Source: Eubacterium sp.
GTDB taxonomy: Bacteria > Bacillota > Clostridia > Oscillospirales > Acutalibacteraceae
Direction of reading: 5' to 3'
NCBI GenBank assembly: GCA_017445905.1
Contig: JAFSRX010000013.1
Coordinates: forward strand, 15,815-79,814
Length of the DNA: 64,000 nucleotides
Within the stretch, counting starts at the first letter, position 1; each line of letters opens with the position of its first letter. The notes under the pieces were generated by a model. It worked only from the letters and a program-made list of their open reading frames with translations. It made no database searches and was not told the DNA's origin. Positions 228 to 45,089 of the stretch are shown here, in pieces. A program made the translations under genes and the position numbers.

Positions 228-2126
228 ATGTTTGATTGCAAAATGGTAATAAACAGATTAAGTATTGAAGAAAACAAACTTCGTATTTCAGTGGCATTCA
301 GTTGCGAATATAACGCCGATGTTACTTCACCTAAGGCGAAGGTGTTCTTTCAGCAGGGTGAAACAACAAGAAGACTGCCCCTTCTGATGACGAATTATTT
401 TCGCCAGAAGCAAAGAGAGAGCTGCGTTGTTGTTTGTAACTATACTTATTTGATTGATAAACTGTTTTTTAATAAAGACAGTGATGAGGATATAAAAATC
501 AGAATTGATTTTTACTATGGAGAAAACGAAATAACAGGTGTTCCGTTCAGTATTTCATCCAATGTTATTCTTGATAATCCTGATATTGAAGTTAGCGAAG
601 AAAACATTGAATATGAATGCTTTGACGGCGTTGCTGTATTTGACAGTGCTTCTGAATATGAAACATCAAATGAAAAATATTTTGATAAATATAAATTTGA
701 TTTTGATTTCAAAGAAAACCTGATTATTCTTAAAAAGACTGATAAGGCAAGAAAAAGAAGAAAATTCAAGCCTGTTAGTACGCTGATAAAATTCATTTTA
801 TTTGTTTTAAGAGTTTTGCTTGCAGTTGCGTTAGCTCCGTATTTTGTTATTGACGGATTTTTTGCTGCACTCGGAATTGTTCCGAGAAGAGCAACGAAAC
901 AGATTGATACCCTTTCAAAAAATATCTTTGTTCAGATAAAAATCAATTTTTCTTCATTTTTGAAGACAAGCTTCAAAAAATCAAATGTTGTTGAAAATCT
1001 TAGAAAACCGGTTTTAGCCCTTTTCAGATATTACTACAGAGTCCTTTGTGACCATCATGAAATCGTTCCTAACCGAATTGCATTTATGTCGGGGAGAAGG
1101 GACGAGATGGGCGGAAATCCCGAATTTGTTTATAATCTGATTAAAGACAGAGAGGATATCGATTTTAAATTCCTTCTTTTTTCGGACCCGAACGGCCATA
1201 GTAAGCTCAAAAACATTCGCCGCTTTATGCATTTATATGCAACGAGCAAGGTTGTTATTGTTGATGATTATTTCAGGCTTCTCAATGCAGTTGACAAAAG
1301 GGAAGGGGTTAATCTTTTTCAGCTCTGGCATGCCTGCGGCGCATTCAAAACCTTTGGCTTTACAAGACTCGGTAAAAAGGGCGGACCAAAGCAGAATGAT
1401 GTTAACCATAGAATGTATGACTGTGCTATAGTCAGCTCCCAGGAAATTGCAAAGCACTATGCTGAGGGCTTTGGACTCAGCGATGAATGCATTGCCGCAA
1501 CGGGTATTCCGAGAACGGATATATTTATGGATGAGCATTATGCAAAAAGCATTCAAGAACGCTTTTATGAAAAACGGCCTCAGCTCAGGGATAAAAAGAT
1601 TATTCTTTTTGCTCCTACTTTCAGAGGAAACGGTCAGATGAGTGCATATTATCCTCTTGAAGCGTTTGACCCTGCCACTCTTTATGAAAGCCTTTCTGAA
1701 GAATATGCAATCCTTATAAAGCTCCATCCCTTCTGTCAGGAAAGATACGTTATTGATGAGAAGTATAAGGATTATATAATCGATTTATCTGAAGAGGATG
1801 AACTAAATGATTTGCTTTTTGTAACCGACTTGCTTATAACTGATTATTCAAGCGTTATTTTTGAAGCATCTCTTCGCGGTATTCCGATGCTGTTTTATGC
1901 TTATGATTTATATGAGTATATTTCAAGCAGAGATTTCTATTATGATTTTGAGAGCTTTGTTCCGGGTAAAATTGTTTTCTCACAGAGTGACCTTATAAAA
2001 AGCATTAAAGAAAACGATTTTGATACGGAAAAGGTTGACGGTTTTAAGAATAAGTTCTTTGACTCTCTTGACGGAAAATCTTCCCAGAGAGTTGCCGATT
2101 TAATAGTTGATAAGTTAGATATATAA
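228..2126 (+). CDS. CDP-glycerol/ribitol:poly(polyol-phosphate) phosphotransferase, TagB/TagF/TarL family, with a long N-terminal extension
   Basis: Family motifs QLWHACGAFK, GIPRTD, FAPTFRG, KLHP and TDYSSVIFE; directly upstream of tarI-tarJ. Confidence 0.9.
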   Translation: MFDCKMVINRLSIEENKLRISVAFSCEYNADVTSPKAKVFFQQGETTRRLPLLMTNYFRQKQRESCVVVCNYTYLIDKLFFNKDSDEDIKIRIDFYYGENEITGVPFSISSNVILDNPDIEVSEENIEYECFDGVAVFDSASEYETSNEKYFDKYKFDFDFKENLIILKKTDKARKRRKFKPVSTLIKFILFVLRVLLAVALAPYFVIDGFFAALGIVPRRATKQIDTLSKNIFVQIKINFSSFLKTSFKKSNVVENLRKPVLALFRYYYRVLCDHHEIVPNRIAFMSGRRDEMGGNPEFVYNLIKDREDIDFKFLLFSDPNGHSKLKNIRRFMHLYATSKVVIVDDYFRLLNAVDKREGVNLFQLWHACGAFKTFGFTRLGKKGGPKQNDVNHRMYDCAIVSSQEIAKHYAEGFGLSDECIAATGIPRTDIFMDEHYAKSIQERFYEKRPQLRDKKIILFAPTFRGNGQMSAYYPLEAFDPATLYESLSEEYAILIKLHPFCQERYVIDEKYKDYIIDLSEEDELNDLLFVTDLLITDYSSVIFEASLRGIPMLFYAYDLYEYISSRDFYYDFESFVPGKIVFSQSDLIKSIKENDFDTEKVDGFKNKFFDSLDGKSSQRVADLIVDKLDI

Positions 2127-2139
2127 AGGAGATATTAAT

Positions 2140-2853
2140 ATGGTTTACGGAGTTGTTTTAGCAGGCGGAATCGGTTCCAGAATGGGCGGAGATAAGCCGA
2201 AACAGTATCTTGAAGTTAAAAACAAGCCGATTATTATTTATACAATCGAAAAATTCTTTTCAGTACCTGATTTTGAGAAGATTATTGTTCTTTGCCCTAA
2301 TCAGTGGGTTGAGCATACAAAAAATCTTATTGAAAAGTATATTTCTCCTGTTAAAGACAGAGTTGTTGTTATTGAAGGCGGAAATACAAGAAACGAAACA
2401 ATTATGAACGCCATCAAATTCATTGACGGTGAGGGTAAGCTCGACGAAGAAACAATAATTGTTACCCACGACAGCGTTCGTCCGTTTGTTACCCACAGAA
2501 TTATTAAAGAAAATATTGAAGCTGCAAAAGAATTCGGTGCTTGTGATACAGTTGTTCCTGCAACGGATACAATAGTTGAAGCACTTGATAATTCCTTTAT
2601 CAGCGATATTCCCGACAGAAGTAAAATGTATCAGGGTCAGACTCCTCAGTCGTTTAATGCAATGAAGCTCAAGAGGATGTATGATTCGATAACTGATGAA
2701 GAAAAAGCAATTCTGACAGATGCTGCAAAAATCTTCGTTATCAAAGGCGAAAAGGTTGCTCTTGTCGATGGTGAAACATATAACGTTAAAATAACTTATC
2801 CATACGATTTGCGTGTTGCAAGGTCATTCCTGGAGGAACAAGAGGATGATTAA
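2140..2853 (+). CDS. tarI: Ribitol-5-phosphate cytidylyltransferase (IspD/TarI family)
   Basis: LAGGIGSRMG..PKQY, HDSVRPF, QTPQSF and KITYPYDL motifs; paired with a TarJ-like gene. Confidence 0.88.
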   Translation: MVYGVVLAGGIGSRMGGDKPKQYLEVKNKPIIIYTIEKFFSVPDFEKIIVLCPNQWVEHTKNLIEKYISPVKDRVVVIEGGNTRNETIMNAIKFIDGEGKLDEETIIVTHDSVRPFVTHRIIKENIEAAKEFGACDTVVPATDTIVEALDNSFISDIPDRSKMYQGQTPQSFNAMKLKRMYDSITDEEKAILTDAAKIFVIKGEKVALVDGETYNVKITYPYDLRVARSFLEEQEDD

Positions 2854-3871
2854 TACAGTATTTCGATTAGTATCTCCGAGGCGCTTTGAAATAGCGTTTG
2901 AGGATATTGATTTGTTTTCGGGCAATGTAATAGTCAGACCGACAAATCTATCTATCTGCAACGCCGATATGCGCTACTATCTCGGAACAAGGGATGCAAA
3001 GGTTCTTGCCGAAAAGCTTCCAATGGCGCTTATCCACGAGGGAATAGGCGAGATCGTTTTCGATCCGACAAATACCTTTAAATCGGGCGATTTAGTTGTT
3101 ATGGTCCCCAATATGCCCACTGAAGAGGATGAATATATTGGCGAAAACTATCTTCGCTCATCAAAATTCTGCGGTTCTTCTATGGATGGATTTCTTCAGG
3201 AATATGTTGAAATATCACCGAAAAGACTTGTTCTTCTTCCAAAGGAAATTGACAGAAATGTTGCAGCGTTTACTGAAATTGTTTCGGTTTCAGTTCATGC
3301 AATATCAAGGTTTGATAAAATAGCCCACGAAAGACGTAATGTTATCGGAGTCTGGGGCGACGGCAATCTCGGATATATTACATCACTGTTTTTAAAATAT
3401 ACTTTTCCAAATTCTAAGATTGTTGTTTTCGGAACACAGAGAGAAAAGCTCGCCGATTTTACATTTGCAGATGAAACATATCTCGTTCATGAAATTCCTG
3501 AAGGATTTACTATGGACCACGCCTTTGAATGTGTTGGCGGAAACGGAAGTCCTATTGCCATTGAGCAGATTATAGGGCTCATCAAACCCGAGGGAACAAT
3601 ATCAATCCTCGGAGTAAGCGAGTATCCCGTTTCGGTTAATACAAGAATGATTCTTGAAAAGGGACTTCGTGTTTTCGGCTCATCGAGAAGCGGAGTTGAT
3701 GATTTCAGAAAAACAGTTGAAATGTATAAGGCTCACCCTGAAATTATTGATTATCTCGGAAACCTTGTTTTCAGCGTTAATACTGTTAGAACAACAAAAG
3801 ACCTGAAAGAAGCGTTTGAAAGAGATACAAGAAAGCATTTCGGAAAAGTTATTATGAAATGGGAACTTTAA
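2846..3871 (+). CDS. tarJ: Ribitol-5-phosphate dehydrogenase (MDR family)
   Basis: MIN.VF.LVSPRRF start, SICNADMRYY, PMALIHE, GDGNLG. Start moved to ATG 2846 (GGAGG upstream, 8-bp overlap with tarI). Confidence 0.88.
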   Translation: MINTVFRLVSPRRFEIAFEDIDLFSGNVIVRPTNLSICNADMRYYLGTRDAKVLAEKLPMALIHEGIGEIVFDPTNTFKSGDLVVMVPNMPTEEDEYIGENYLRSSKFCGSSMDGFLQEYVEISPKRLVLLPKEIDRNVAAFTEIVSVSVHAISRFDKIAHERRNVIGVWGDGNLGYITSLFLKYTFPNSKIVVFGTQREKLADFTFADETYLVHEIPEGFTMDHAFECVGGNGSPIAIEQIIGLIKPEGTISILGVSEYPVSVNTRMILEKGLRVFGSSRSGVDDFRKTVEMYKAHPEIIDYLGNLVFSVNTVRTTKDLKEAFERDTRKHFGKVIMKWEL

Positions 3872-3891
3872 TTATAATTTAGGAGAATACT

Positions 3892-4296
3892 ATGTTAAGA
3901 AGAATAGTATCTGTTTTAATCCCAGTGGCATTTGGTATTATTATAATTGTTATTGGCTGTGTCAATGTATCGCAGGTTAAAAACTTTCCTGAGGTTAATG
4001 CTGTTGTTACGAAAATAGATATTGACTATTCAACCGATGCGGACGGCGACACAACTGAGGACGAAACTGTTTTTGTTGAATACACTGTTGATGATAAGAC
4101 TTACAACGAAGAACTCAACTATGCTCCGAGCGGACTTGAAGAAAAACAGAAAATAACTGTTCGCTATAATCCTGAAAAGCCCGAATATGTTTCAGGCGCA
4201 ACAAAAAAGAGCGGAATAATTAAAATAGTTATCGGTGCAGCGATTATATTAATTAGCCTTATAGCTAAATTATTAGGAATTCTCAGAGGAAGATAA
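3892..4296 (+). CDS. Small two-TM membrane protein, DUF3592-like
   Basis: N- and C-terminal TM helices around a beta-rich loop with the 'V.Y.P..P' motif (VRYNPEKPE). Confidence 0.7.
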   Translation: MLRRIVSVLIPVAFGIIIIVIGCVNVSQVKNFPEVNAVVTKIDIDYSTDADGDTTEDETVFVEYTVDDKTYNEELNYAPSGLEEKQKITVRYNPEKPEYVSGATKKSGIIKIVIGAAIILISLIAKLLGILRGR

Positions 4297-42226: not shown

Positions 42227-43369
42227 TTAATCCTTTCGCTTCAGTGATACAACTGTTTCAATATGTTCTGTGAATGGAAACATATCAACACCCTGAATTT
42301 TTTCCGCTGTATAGTCTTTTTTAGTGAGTATTTTTAAATCTCTTGCAAGCGTTTTAGGATTGCAGGAAATGTATATTATTTTCTTTGGTTTCAGTTTAAG
42401 CAGTGAAAGAAGAAATTCTCTGCTTGCTCCCGCCCTTGGCGGATCCATAAAAACAACATCAAAATGTTCTTTTTCTTTTGCTAAATCATCTATTAGCTTT
42501 GTTGCGTCAGCTTCAATGAAATAGATGTTTTTTATATCGTTTTTCTTTGCGTTTGAAACGGCGTCATTAACAGCCTTTTCATTGAGCTCAACGCCGAGAA
42601 CCTGACCTGCCTTTTTAGCGGCAATAATGCCGATTGTTCCGGTTCCGCAGTAGGCATCAAAAACGGCATCGTCTTTTTGTATTTCAGCAAATTCAATAGC
42701 CATATTATATAGCTTTTCGGTTTGAACAGGATTAACCTGATAGAAAGAAGCGGGAGATATTCTGAAAGTGCAGGAGCAGAGAATATCTTCAATATATCCC
42801 TTTCCATAGAGAATATGGCTTTGCTCACCTAAAATCAGATTAGTATCCGTCGGATTGACGTTGTGAATAATTGTTGTTATTTCACTGTGTCTTTTCAAAA
42901 GCGCTTTAACAAAATTATTTCTTGACGGAAAAACAGGGGAGGCGGTAACAATAACAACCATTGTCTCTCCCGTTTTAAAGCCTTTTCTGATTAAAACATG
43001 CCTGAGAAAGCCGCTTTTATTTTTAATGTCATAAGGTCTTAACTTAAAATCATCAGCAAGCTTTCGTATGCTTATTATAATATCATCGGCGCCTTTATCA
43101 TCAAGCATACAGTAATCAATCGGAATAATTCTTTTTGAGGTGCTCTGGTAAACGCCTGATGAACATTTTTGTTTTCTGTAATCAAAATAAAATGCACACT
43201 GAACTTTATTTCTGTAGTTAAAAGGATTTTCCATAGGAATTATTCTTTCAACTTTTGAGAATTCAGAAAGCAGATTATTAAGTCCGTTTTGTTTATATGC
43301 AAGCTGCTTTTCATATTCATCGCTCTGAAATCTGCATGCTCCGCATTTTTTAAACTGTTTACATTGCAT
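42227..43369 (-). CDS. rlmD: 23S rRNA (uracil-5)-methyltransferase, RlmD family, without a TRAM domain
   Basis: CxxxxxCGAC [4Fe-4S] start, YRNK, SFYQVN, DAYCGTGTIG, DPPRAG, YISCNP, DMFPFTEHIE. Start set at ATG 43369. Confidence 0.92.
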   Translation of the reverse strand: MQCKQFKKCGACRFQSDEYEKQLAYKQNGLNNLLSEFSKVERIIPMENPFNYRNKVQCAFYFDYRKQKCSSGVYQSTSKRIIPIDYCMLDDKGADDIIISIRKLADDFKLRPYDIKNKSGFLRHVLIRKGFKTGETMVVIVTASPVFPSRNNFVKALLKRHSEITTIIHNVNPTDTNLILGEQSHILYGKGYIEDILCSCTFRISPASFYQVNPVQTEKLYNMAIEFAEIQKDDAVFDAYCGTGTIGIIAAKKAGQVLGVELNEKAVNDAVSNAKKNDIKNIYFIEADATKLIDDLAKEKEHFDVVFMDPPRAGASREFLLSLLKLKPKKIIYISCNPKTLARDLKILTKKDYTAEKIQGVDMFPFTEHIETVVSLKRKD

Positions 43370-43388: not shown

Positions 43389-43633
43389 TTCCCGAAGGGA
43401 AATATCGCATTGAAAATATATCGCACCGAAGGTATATCGCTAATTATTTTTATTTTTAGCAGTTGTTATCGACGCAATTAGTATTCGGCGTATAGTTCCG
43501 CATTTTTTAGAAGTTCTTTTATTGTTTTATCACTCATAAGCAAAAACATCCTTTTGGGGATATGTTGCTGAAGCAACGCGATATATTTGTTTGCAAATGC
43601 GATATTCGCTGAATATATCAGCGAGCGATATAT
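43389..43633. mobile_element. Inverted ATATCGC/hairpin arrays enclosing a gene remnant; probable degenerate mobile element
   Basis: Three ATATCGC units on + (43402-43440) and three on - (about 43578-43633), each separated by a different mini-hairpin. Confidence 0.55.
43440..43537 (-). pseudogene. C-terminal remnant of a four-helix-bundle (TIGR02436/bAvd-like) gene, frameshifted
   Basis: Minus strand reads MSDKTIKELLK / KCGTIRRILIASITTAKNKNN* across a 1-nt shift in an A6 run; by recall this resembles four-helix-bundle C-termini. Confidence 0.45.
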
Positions 43634-43826
43634 ACTTGCATTGCTCGTATGTAATTATAATAACATTTTGATAATTACTTTTCAACTTTCAATTTAGTGA
43701 TTTACCACAATAAAGTTCTAATGTCAAAACATATTTTTATAAATATAATAATATTGCATTATTGATTAAAAAGTGATAAAATATTTAATCATTTTTAGAT
43801 TTTCGGATAAAAACGAGGAGAAAAAT

Positions 43827-45089
43827 ATGGCTGAATATACTAATATGTCGAAAGAAGAATTGCTCAGAGAAAAAGAGCTTCTTCAAAAGAAATATGATGA
43901 ATTTAAAGCAATGGGACTAAGCCTTGATATGTCAAGAGGAAAGCCCTGTAAAGAGCAGCTTGACTTATCAATGGGAATGCTCAGAGCTGATATAGATTAT
44001 ACGGAAAATGGAATTGACACAAGAAACTATGGCATTCTTGACGGAATTCCGAGCTGTAAAAAGCTTTTTGCCGAGCTTTTAGGCGTTGATGTTAAGAATA
44101 TTATTGCAGGTCCAAATGCAAGCCTAACGCTTATGTTTGACTATATAACTCAATGCTTTGCTCACGGTGTTCTTGGCGAAACACCGTGGAGGGAAATTAA
44201 GAATTTAAAGTTTATCTGTCCTGTTCCCGGATATGACAGGCATTTTACAATTCTTGAATACTTTGATATCGAAATGATTAATATTCCGATTAATTCAGAC
44301 GGTCCGGATATGAACGCTGTAAGAGAGCTTGTTAAAGACCCGAGCGTTAAGGGTATGTTCTGCGTTCCTAAGTATTCAAATCCTACAGGAATAACATATT
44401 CCGATGAAATTGTCAGAGAGATTGCAGCTTTAAAGCCGGCAGCAAAGGATTTCAGAATTATCTGGGATAATGCATATTTCATCCACGACCTTGATGATAA
44501 CGGCGACGAGCTTCTTAATATTTTTGATGTTCTTAGCGAATATAATAATGAGGATATGGTAATTGAGGTTTGTTCAACTTCAAAAATTACTTTCTCAGGC
44601 GCAGGCGTTTCCGCTATTGCGGCAAGCGATGCAAATATCAAGCAGATTATGAAAAGACTTAACTGCCAGACAATCAGCTATGATAAGATGAACCAGCTTC
44701 GCCATTCAAGATTTTTCGGCGACGTTTCGGCTGTTAAGGAACATATGAAAAAGCATGCTGCAATACTTAAACCAAAGTTTGAAATTGTTTTAAAGCATCT
44801 TGAAAATGAACTCGGCGGACTTGGTATTGCAAGCTGGGTTAACCCGAACGGCGGATATTTCATCAGCCTTGATGTTATGAACGGCTGCGCTAAAAGAGTA
44901 GGGGAGCTTTGCAAGGGGGCAGGCGTTACATTAACTCCTGTCGGCGCAACATATCCTTACGGCAAAGACCCGAATAACAGCAATATCAGAATTGCTCCGT
45001 CCTTCCCGCCCGTTGATGAACTTGATTTAGCGGCGCAGATTCTTTGCGTTAGTGTTAAAATCGCAGCTATTGAAAAATTGGTAGGTTAG
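43827..45089 (+). CDS. PLP-dependent aminotransferase, class I/II (Rv3722c/AspT-like)
   Basis: LDMSRGKP..EQLDLS, VPGYDRH, VPKYSNPTG, WDNAY, STSKITF (PLP Lys), IRIAPS. RBS fits ATG 43827. Confidence 0.88.
   Translation: MAEYTNMSKEELLREKELLQKKYDEFKAMGLSLDMSRGKPCKEQLDLSMGMLRADIDYTENGIDTRNYGILDGIPSCKKLFAELLGVDVKNIIAGPNASLTLMFDYITQCFAHGVLGETPWREIKNLKFICPVPGYDRHFTILEYFDIEMINIPINSDGPDMNAVRELVKDPSVKGMFCVPKYSNPTGITYSDEIVREIAALKPAAKDFRIIWDNAYFIHDLDDNGDELLNIFDVLSEYNNEDMVIEVCSTSKITFSGAGVSAIAASDANIKQIMKRLNCQTISYDKMNQLRHSRFFGDVSAVKEHMKKHAAILKPKFEIVLKHLENELGGLGIASWVNPNGGYFISLDVMNGCAKRVGELCKGAGVTLTPVGATYPYGKDPNNSNIRIAPSFPPVDELDLAAQILCVSVKIAAIEKLVG

Follow-up and report, generated by a model that had tools for sequence, protein, structure and literature searches.

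We lean, with slightly better than even confidence, toward the view that positions 43389-43648 hold a decayed copy of a small selfish cassette akin to the intervening sequence (IVS) of 23S rRNA genes, and that its arms act as transcribed, structured RNA. Positions are those of the window, the whole 64,000-nt stretch of DNA that was analysed. A circularly permuted form of the cassette would have entered the stretch that separates the rlmD promoter from the ribosome-binding site of this gene, and a deletion of about 250 nt would afterwards have removed much of the cassette's own gene. The practical message for the window is modest. This copy is a relic; the interest lies in the family to which it belongs, which joins two orphans, the Gut-1 RNA motif described in 2010 and the widespread PF05635 family of "23S rRNA intervening-sequence proteins".

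An intergenic spacer of 458 bp separates rlmD, whose ATG is at 43369 on the minus strand, from an aspartate aminotransferase gene that starts with an ATG at 43827 on the plus strand, and it carries an array of the heptamer ATATCGC on each strand. On the plus strand, a 13-nt hairpin, ttcccgaagggaa (43389-43401), precedes the first ATATCGC (43402-08), which is followed by attgaaaat, ATATCGC (43418-24), accgaaggt and ATATCGC (43434-40), both spacers being 9 nt long. The minus-strand array begins with ATATCGC (43631-25), tcgctgatatattcagcga, ATATCGC (43605-599) and atttgcaaacaaat and continues with ATATCGC (43584-78), gttgcttcagcaac and a degenerate ATATCCC (43563-57). The spacers of both arrays are all self-complementary hairpins, and the sequence reads just as the preliminary description had it, with heptamers alternating with different self-complementary spacers. 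By exact-match count, the whole window contains 12 copies of ATATCGC or GCGATAT compared to 8.9 ± 3.2 expected by chance. Six of these, three per strand, lie within 43402-43631, and the binomial probability of such clustering in one 230-bp stretch is about 2e-12 (<1e-7 when corrected for all start positions). A general scan of the 64 kb for 7-mers that recur three or more times and are separated by hairpins unlike one another matched these two arrays only.

Read in the direction of rlmD, the spacer starts with a sigma-70-type promoter (43657-43685, minus strand; TTGAAA, 17 nt, TATTAT, with TG; 10/12 matches). In alignments this promoter block is common to the window and three sister species (L297, L298 and L296), and it is conserved also in species that have no cassette. 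Directly after the -10 box comes acgagcaatgcaagtat (43632-43648, minus strand), the leading block of what we call the A-half and the start of the inserted DNA; an equivalent block, ACGAGCAAnGCGAGT, precedes the ATATCGC heptamer in L297, L318, L321 and L324. The A-half itself (43557-43631, minus strand) has three copies of ATATCGC, the degenerate ATATCCC and three hairpin spacers of 19, 14 and 14 nt, of which atttgc..caaat and gttgc..gcaac are homologous to hairpins of L021 and L377. The G-half (43389-43440, minus strand) has three copies of GCGAUAU alternating with the hairpins accUUCggu, auuUUCaau and uucccUUCgggaa. It ends about 20 nt 5' of the rlmD ribosome-binding site, a placement seen before other genes in L324, L385 and L453. 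The rlmD gene (42227-43369, minus strand) encodes a RumA-type 23S rRNA m5U methyltransferase (TIGR00479, 357 bits, cut-off 183.55; PF05958). Its 5' leader contains the cassette and, at about 290 nt from the rlmD promoter, is unusually long and highly structured.

Two other readings of the arrays were considered and rejected. With regard to a terminator or attenuator, our scan found no intrinsic terminator on the rlmD-sense strand of the leader; the single terminator-like hairpin (43563-43578) is on the plus strand, antisense to rlmD, and the last hairpin of the G-half has no T-run behind it. A CRISPR-like or guide array was dismissed on the grounds that the spacers are self-complementary and the repeats merely 7 nt long. 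PADLOC gave no match, and an Rfam scan of the window at gathering cut-offs found tRNA alone and no rRNA.

Contigs of the same species (L001-L005) were 100% identical in this intergenic region and offered no variation to compare. Related strains from goat gut metagenomes (runs X5 and X7) differ from the window in both arrays. A G>C change at 43558 makes a fourth minus-strand copy of ATATCGC, and the plus-strand array has one additional unit, a heptamer plus an 8-nt spacer, at window position 43416. The restored fourth heptamer and the extra unit show that the heptamer is maintained and that the number of units varies. The hairpins of the window and of L297 differ in sequence yet remain self-complementary in both, which suggests that the arrays stay under selection after loss of the gene they once accompanied.

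That gene is represented in the window by a remnant (43440-43537, minus strand) of a four-helix-bundle (4HB) gene of the PF05635/TIGR02436 family, in which a 5' part of about 27 nt (MSDKTIKEL) and a 3' part of about 70 nt (KCGTIRRILIASITTAKNKNN and the stop codon) are joined out of frame. Only 98 of 348 nt are left, about 250 nt having been deleted from the middle, and an intact reading frame of about 115 aa is absent. Over its first 24 nt the remnant matches the intact L321 gene without a difference, and the 3' part of about 70 nt aligns to L321, L377 and L385. The 18-aa peptide KCGTIRRILIASITTAKN (43505-43452) is 89% identical by tblastn to the C-terminus of the intact 115-aa protein of L324, which itself scores 80 bits against PF05635 (cut-off 33.8) and 87.9 bits against TIGR02436 (cut-off 24) and matches PDB 2rld with an E of 2e-21. 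Both reading frames are as first described, the C-terminal one having been recovered independently in the tblastn search, and judged by these alignments the peptide is a true remnant of a 4HB gene, as had been proposed. Pfam found no PF05635 match in the two window peptides (32 aa each), only weak chance matches to RRM_1 and GAT, because the peptides are too short and the gene is broken. As it stands, the remnant forms a 19-aa ORF (43478-43537) that is an accident of the ~250-nt deletion; being part of a pseudogene, this ORF does not merit annotation as a gene for a peptide. In the goat gut strains (X5, X7), a T>C change at 43482 alters the final codon of this ORF.

Loci with the same arrays 5' of rlmD were obtained by scanning species-representative genomes with the rlmD protein. 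In three of them (L324, L318 and L321), the arrays are accompanied by an intact 115-aa 4HB gene. A search of metagenome and viral contigs with an alignment of four 4HB proteins yielded 48 distinct proteins from 83 loci. A G-half and then an A-half stand directly upstream of at least 33 of these 48 genes, in the pattern GGG(G)AAA(A) and within about 200 nt of the start codon; five of the remaining genes are on contigs without upstream sequence. In these composites, the G-half consists of 3-5 heptamers of the GYGAWAU type alternating with hairpins, and the A-half of 3-4 reverse-complement heptamers and hairpins. Every locus with sufficient upstream sequence and a 4HB protein at least 63% identical to that of L324 has ATATCGC/GCGATAT arrays, so that the association between these arrays and 4HB genes anticipated in the preliminary description is borne out. 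When IMG/VR was scanned with three-heptamer patterns, mostly tandem coding repeats and chance matches were returned, and the only genuine ATATCGC arrays were in L021, L092 and L118.

Six heptamer pairs were observed (GCGATAT, TCGATAT, GTGAAAT, ATGAAAT, GTGATAT and GTGAAGT), distributed by protein lineage, with GCGATAT belonging to the lineage whose proteins are 66-83% identical to that of L324. Whenever the heptamer switches between protein lineages, it does so in both halves at once. The spacers average 4.4-4.8 Watson-Crick pairs, compared to 1.9-2.1 after shuffling, and their sequences are unrelated. At the 5' edge of the G-half is a stretch of 9-13 nt, termed X, which combines a partial heptamer with the 5' arm of the hairpin that comes first. 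The linker between the halves (X') is its perfect complement in 10 different sequence versions, in the gene-sense orientation alone. In most cassettes, the Shine-Dalgarno sequence of the 4HB gene follows immediately on the last A heptamer.

One explanation for the co-change of heptamer and protein is that the heptamers are double-stranded DNA operators to which the 4HB protein, or some other regulator, binds in either orientation so as to control the 4HB gene and, in the window, rlmD. The position of the arrays just upstream of genes agrees with this, and inverted copies of a single site would change together automatically. Operators do not explain why each spacer should form its own hairpin, preserved through compensatory change, or why X and X' should be complementary in one strand orientation only; the spacings of 15-26 bp are irregular relative to the DNA helical repeat, and the covariation-built Rfam model of Gut-1 matches above threshold (see below). 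We regard operators as improbable.

Folding predictions are part of the case for the arrays acting as a single strand. The composites fold far better than shuffled sequences (z of -6.7 and -4.2; -3.6 for the window element), and as single strands they are predicted to zip their G heptamers onto their A heptamers; in the window, the predicted fold pairs the 5' copies of ATATCGC with the 3' copies of GCGATAT. The helix formed by the last G and first A heptamers has compensatory changes at 3 of 7 positions across lineages. RNAalifold on a MAFFT alignment recovered only this G:A heptamer helix and the last hairpin, because the variable hairpins align poorly. Counts of G.U versus A.C wobbles for the folding strand involved very few non-Watson-Crick pairs. 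The loops are dyad-symmetric, GNA/GNRA being the top-strand form in the A-half and the bottom-strand form in the G-half, and would also fit a process on both DNA strands. Taken together, the compensatory hairpins, the strand-specific X:X' pairing, the A-half at the Shine-Dalgarno sequence and the uniform orientation shared with stable-RNA genes upstream speak for a single strand that folds as the sense sequence, for which RNA is the simplest candidate. Transcription was seen in RNA-seq contigs of one cultured organism (runs X17-X24), which has an L454-type cassette of the GTGATAT lineage rather than that of the window; at contig level, tRNA-Arg, terminator, Gut-1 half, A-half and 4HB gene were contiguous at a depth of 1000-4000.

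Two features of the gene neighbourhoods count against the RNA reading, as do the dyad-symmetric loops. The first is that most composites lie right behind a terminator: eleven of 14 non-redundant composites start directly behind a strong hairpin, and 9 of them all told have a T-run no more than 16 nt from X, in the manner of an intrinsic terminator. This hairpin (hp0) itself appears to belong to the element, since near-identical terminator sequences recur in different genomic contexts. The order in an intact member is hp0, X, G-half, X', A-half, Shine-Dalgarno sequence and 4HB gene. The second feature concerns a phage lineage (L282 and L456) that has a near-consensus promoter (TGGACA, 17 nt, TATAAT, with TG) between the A-half and the 4HB start; given this position, the A-half may lie outside the 4HB mRNA. 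At a further set of loci (L324, 1795-1823; L318; L321; L377), the last ~10 codons of an upstream RumA-type gene form hp0 as a perfect 11-12-bp hairpin. Its sequence differs from genome to genome. As the stop codon shares bases with the degenerate heptamer that comes first, the coding sequence and the element overlap.

The G-half resembles a known RNA. In the window, it aligned to the full-length Rfam model of Gut-1 (RF01706) with 23.5 bits (E 0.016-0.028), which is below the gathering score of 50, and its GCGATAT-type relatives L324, L377 and L378 were likewise below threshold. Members of the GTGAAAT, GTGATAT and ATGAAAT lineages scored 50-79 bits, on the plus strand for the G-half and on the minus strand for the A-half. 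The Gut-1 consensus is GUGAAAU alternating with three hairpins, and the window G-half has the same architecture, a conserved heptamer alternating with at least three variable hairpins. A continuous series of lineages carrying the same gene connects the window G-half to the true Gut-1 matches. On this evidence, Gut-1 is one half of a bipartite array that accompanies 4HB genes, and the GCGAUAU version in the window is, by the same comparison, a divergent lineage beyond the reach of the Rfam model. Gut-1 was described as an orphan non-coding RNA from human gut metagenomes only, without gene association (Weinberg et al. 2010). In the literature on Gut-1, PF05635 and TIGR02436, we found no description of an association between arrays and 4HB genes.

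The genomic contexts bear on how such cassettes spread. Sister species share the rlmD promoter with the window, and their rlmD proteins are 77-80% identical to that of the window. Two of them (L298 and L296) have an empty site, in which the -10 box runs straight into the ribosome-binding site, which answers to the earlier proposal that empty sites be sought in relatives. In L297, the same site between promoter and ribosome-binding site is occupied by a more decayed remnant of the window's insertion that opens with the same block. In Acutalibacteraceae, L324 corresponds to L315/L330 plus a 565-bp insert, which is flanked by an identical 112-bp direct repeat containing the G-half. Two phages (L021 and L092), whose major capsid proteins are 73% identical, carry gene-less composites at different intergenic sites among terminase, portal, scaffold-like and capsid genes, and the three copies in L092 are nearly identical. 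A tRNA or tmRNA gene lies just upstream in 15 of 45 non-redundant loci, and the adjacent one is co-oriented with the cassette in all of them. All-against-all clustering of flanking ORFs from 50 related loci found no recurrent transposase, integrase, recombinase, reverse transcriptase or nuclease; the sole recurrent neighbours were RumA-type methyltransferases, at five loci.

Occupied and empty sites in close relatives, several copies and varied contexts were thus all seen, and from presence or absence, copy number and context we infer that the cassette is mobile. The sites after tRNA or tmRNA genes and before an rRNA methyltransferase gene, the gene-less copies among phage head genes and the empty sister sites fit a selfish element without its own recombinase. 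The idea of a relic of a transposase-free cassette is supported to this extent, with mobility itself deduced from sequence comparison and with no transposase or integrase co-occurring.

Several side observations concern the same family. The cassettes that follow tRNA or tmRNA genes lie 30-250 nt downstream of them, usually with a terminator between, and the upstream genes comprise nine types of tRNA (Thr/Tyr, Trp, Ser, Met, Arg, Val, Glu) and a tmRNA (L390, L393, L395, L397, L399, L402, L404, L405, L409, L417, L419, L421, L424, L454 and L457). An 18-bp direct repeat, CCCGGCTAAGCGAGCCGC, flanks the gene-less composite of L021 (4318-4335 and 4530-4547), and the hairpin in front of the G-half takes its 5' arm from the first copy. 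The repeat could reflect duplication of a target site, but some of its sequence is also present behind the L092 composite. Tandem copies were present in L422 (2434-3247), where a 4HB gene is followed by four gene-less G|A composites repeated every ~235-270 bp, in L409 (520-2089), with two tandem 4HB cassettes, and in L282, with two tandem composites before one gene. In L365 (4300-5760), a GTGATAT-type cassette has its 4HB gene cut after 33 codons by ~1.1 kb of foreign DNA, in which there is a gene for a small nuclease of GIY-YIG type; behind the insert, the A-half occurs a second time.

The order of the parts varies. The usual order is G-half, A-half and gene, and the window and L385 have the circularly permuted order A-half, gene and G-half, a layout shared by the decayed remnant in L297. 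The preliminary description of arrays around the gene fits this minority form; most relatives have both arrays side by side upstream. A G-half is present on both sides in L324 and L377 (G-A-gene-G), the latter with an additional 105-aa ORF as cargo, and the order in L383 is G-half, gene and A-half. These permutations could mean that a mobile cassette without transposase uses the arrays at the DNA level, as its ends or attachment sites, which would be compatible with the RNA reading. The A-type arrays would then be the terminal inverted repeats of a linear A-gene-G form and the G|A composite its circle-junction or tandem form, with a host enzyme or the 4HB protein recognising folded single-stranded DNA, as with integron attC. 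L383 (G-gene-A) is no permutation of the same circle, however, and the 112-bp repeat of L324, which agrees with such sites, could equally stem from ordinary homologous recombination. The near-identical gene-less copies in one phage, the tandem copies in L422 and L282, the cargo ORF of the one cassette in L377, the absence of a recombinase gene nearby and the position right behind terminator hairpins and tRNA genes all suit DNA sites, as do the dyad-symmetric loops; hairpins with GNA/GNRA loops are stable as DNA too. A symmetric site needs neither the X:X' asymmetry nor a fixed orientation relative to the 4HB gene and upstream tRNAs, and we saw no circle junction, excision product or target-site duplication, nor any excision joint at the window site in the contigs of four metagenome runs. 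We judge DNA sites to be somewhat unlikely.

The recurrence of RumA-type genes next to the arrays suggests a further explanation, in which the G-half 5' of rlmD mimics the substrate of RlmD, so that RlmD binds its own leader and regulates itself. GCGAUAU and GUGAAAU are each one base off GCGAAAU of 23S rRNA, which in E. coli (L459, rrl) lies at 2205-2211, its final T being nt 1933 of the 2898-nt annotated gene; we take this residue to be U1939, the RlmD target, in 2904-nt numbering, if 6 nt are trimmed from the 5' end. Arrays or cassettes lie directly 5' of RumA-type genes in the window and L297, in L315, L318, L324 and L330 (Acutalibacteraceae) and in L453, where the heptamer is a different one. 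The genome loci were picked via rlmD, however, so this adjacency is biased. Among the 83 loci collected by 4HB protein, a RumA-type gene is next to the cassette at only 2, and the majority of cassettes are located behind tRNA genes or in phages. In the closest sister species, rlmD is regulated with no array present, and the resemblance of the heptamer to 23S rRNA was spotted post hoc. Substrate mimicry seems to us very improbable. At least three lineages have independently come to carry a cassette or a solo G-half in front of a RumA-type gene.

Under the favoured IVS-like reading, the arrays would act as RNA within the transcript that carries them. The complementary halves could zip via 7-bp helices separated by hairpin branches, giving an IVS-like stem that might be processed, for example by RNase III, or bound by a toroidal 4HB pentamer. 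Helices of 7 bp are short for RNase III, which counts against the processing step. The arms may simply pair, or may switch between the X:X' fold and the heptamer-zipper fold and in this way set processing, stability or translation. The pentameric 4HB protein would probably bind the arms; that it does so at the heptamers we purely infer. The relic in the window would now serve only as the long, structured 5' leader of rlmD. A broader and rather unlikely proposal is that PF05635 proteins outside diversity-generating retroelements (DGRs) are the single protein of self-contained, transposase-free mobile cassettes. Four to five heptamers, displayed between hairpins either on the protein's own transcript or on single-stranded DNA in folded form, would be what the pentameric toroid recognises; with their help it would copy or insert the cassette behind terminators, tRNA or tmRNA genes, rRNA helices (the classical IVS) and phage genes, and Gut-1 RNA would be the recognition array of the 4HB protein.

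For PF05635 proteins outside the DGR Avd group, the pairing with arrays offers a concrete candidate for a protein-nucleic-acid target. Since the heptamer changes with the protein lineage and Gut-1 is a half-array, the match between protein and target becomes testable. The Gut-1 motif gains a genetic context, and the signs of mobility without an own recombinase are indirect but consistent. The cassettes also offer a handle on the spread of IVS-type elements, a question dating from the early 1990s.

Several known systems share parts of this design. Like REP/BIME elements, the arrays are intergenic, hairpin-rich, multi-copy and transcribed with their neighbours, and gene-less copies are found here in L092 and L422. 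In REP sequences, however, the palindromes are conserved, whereas here the single-stranded heptamer is conserved and the palindromes vary, and no RAYT-type transposase goes with the cassettes. Integron attC cassettes and pdif modules are small and without transposase, their boundary sites are recognisable by structure and short (7-bp) conserved boxes more than by sequence as a whole, and both arrays and solo sites occur. In contrast to these, the cassettes have no integrase nearby, and their sites are multi-unit arrays. The bAvd protein of DGRs belongs to the same fold family and forms a pentameric four-helix-bundle toroid, and Avd works on structured RNA adjoining its gene. The likeness to bAvd noted in the preliminary description stands at the level of the family but goes no further; the window neighbourhood (rlmD, acetyltransferase, aminotransferase and AP endonuclease genes) has no reverse transcriptase or template and variable repeats. 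Gut-1 shares the three to four hairpins separated by a conserved heptamer, but, unlike Gut-1 as published, the element described here is bipartite, with a reverse-complement half, a closing X:X' pair and a 4HB gene on the 3' side.

The 23S rRNA IVS comes closest. As with the cassettes, its distribution is sporadic, it spreads horizontally and its ORF is prone to decay; this S23p ORF lies between complementary termini, which pair into a stem that RNase III cuts out (PMC4990558). The IVS inserts in helix 25 or helix 45 of the 23S rRNA gene, whereas the window element lies in an mRNA leader, between the rlmD promoter and start codon, and other cassettes are found behind tRNA or tmRNA genes or among those of phages. 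The IVS arm is one continuous stem of ~28 bp, in contrast to the modular arrays of 7-nt repeats and variable hairpins in the cassettes, and most members of the cassette family have both arms upstream of the ORF. In Leptospira, Coxiella, Xanthomonas and Brucella, which host an IVS with an S23p ORF, the same PF05635 family is the only gene of a short element. In the window the layout is that of the IVS, an arm, an ORF and a complementary arm, with ATATCGC present 3-4 times 5' of the remnant and GCGATAT three times 3' of it.
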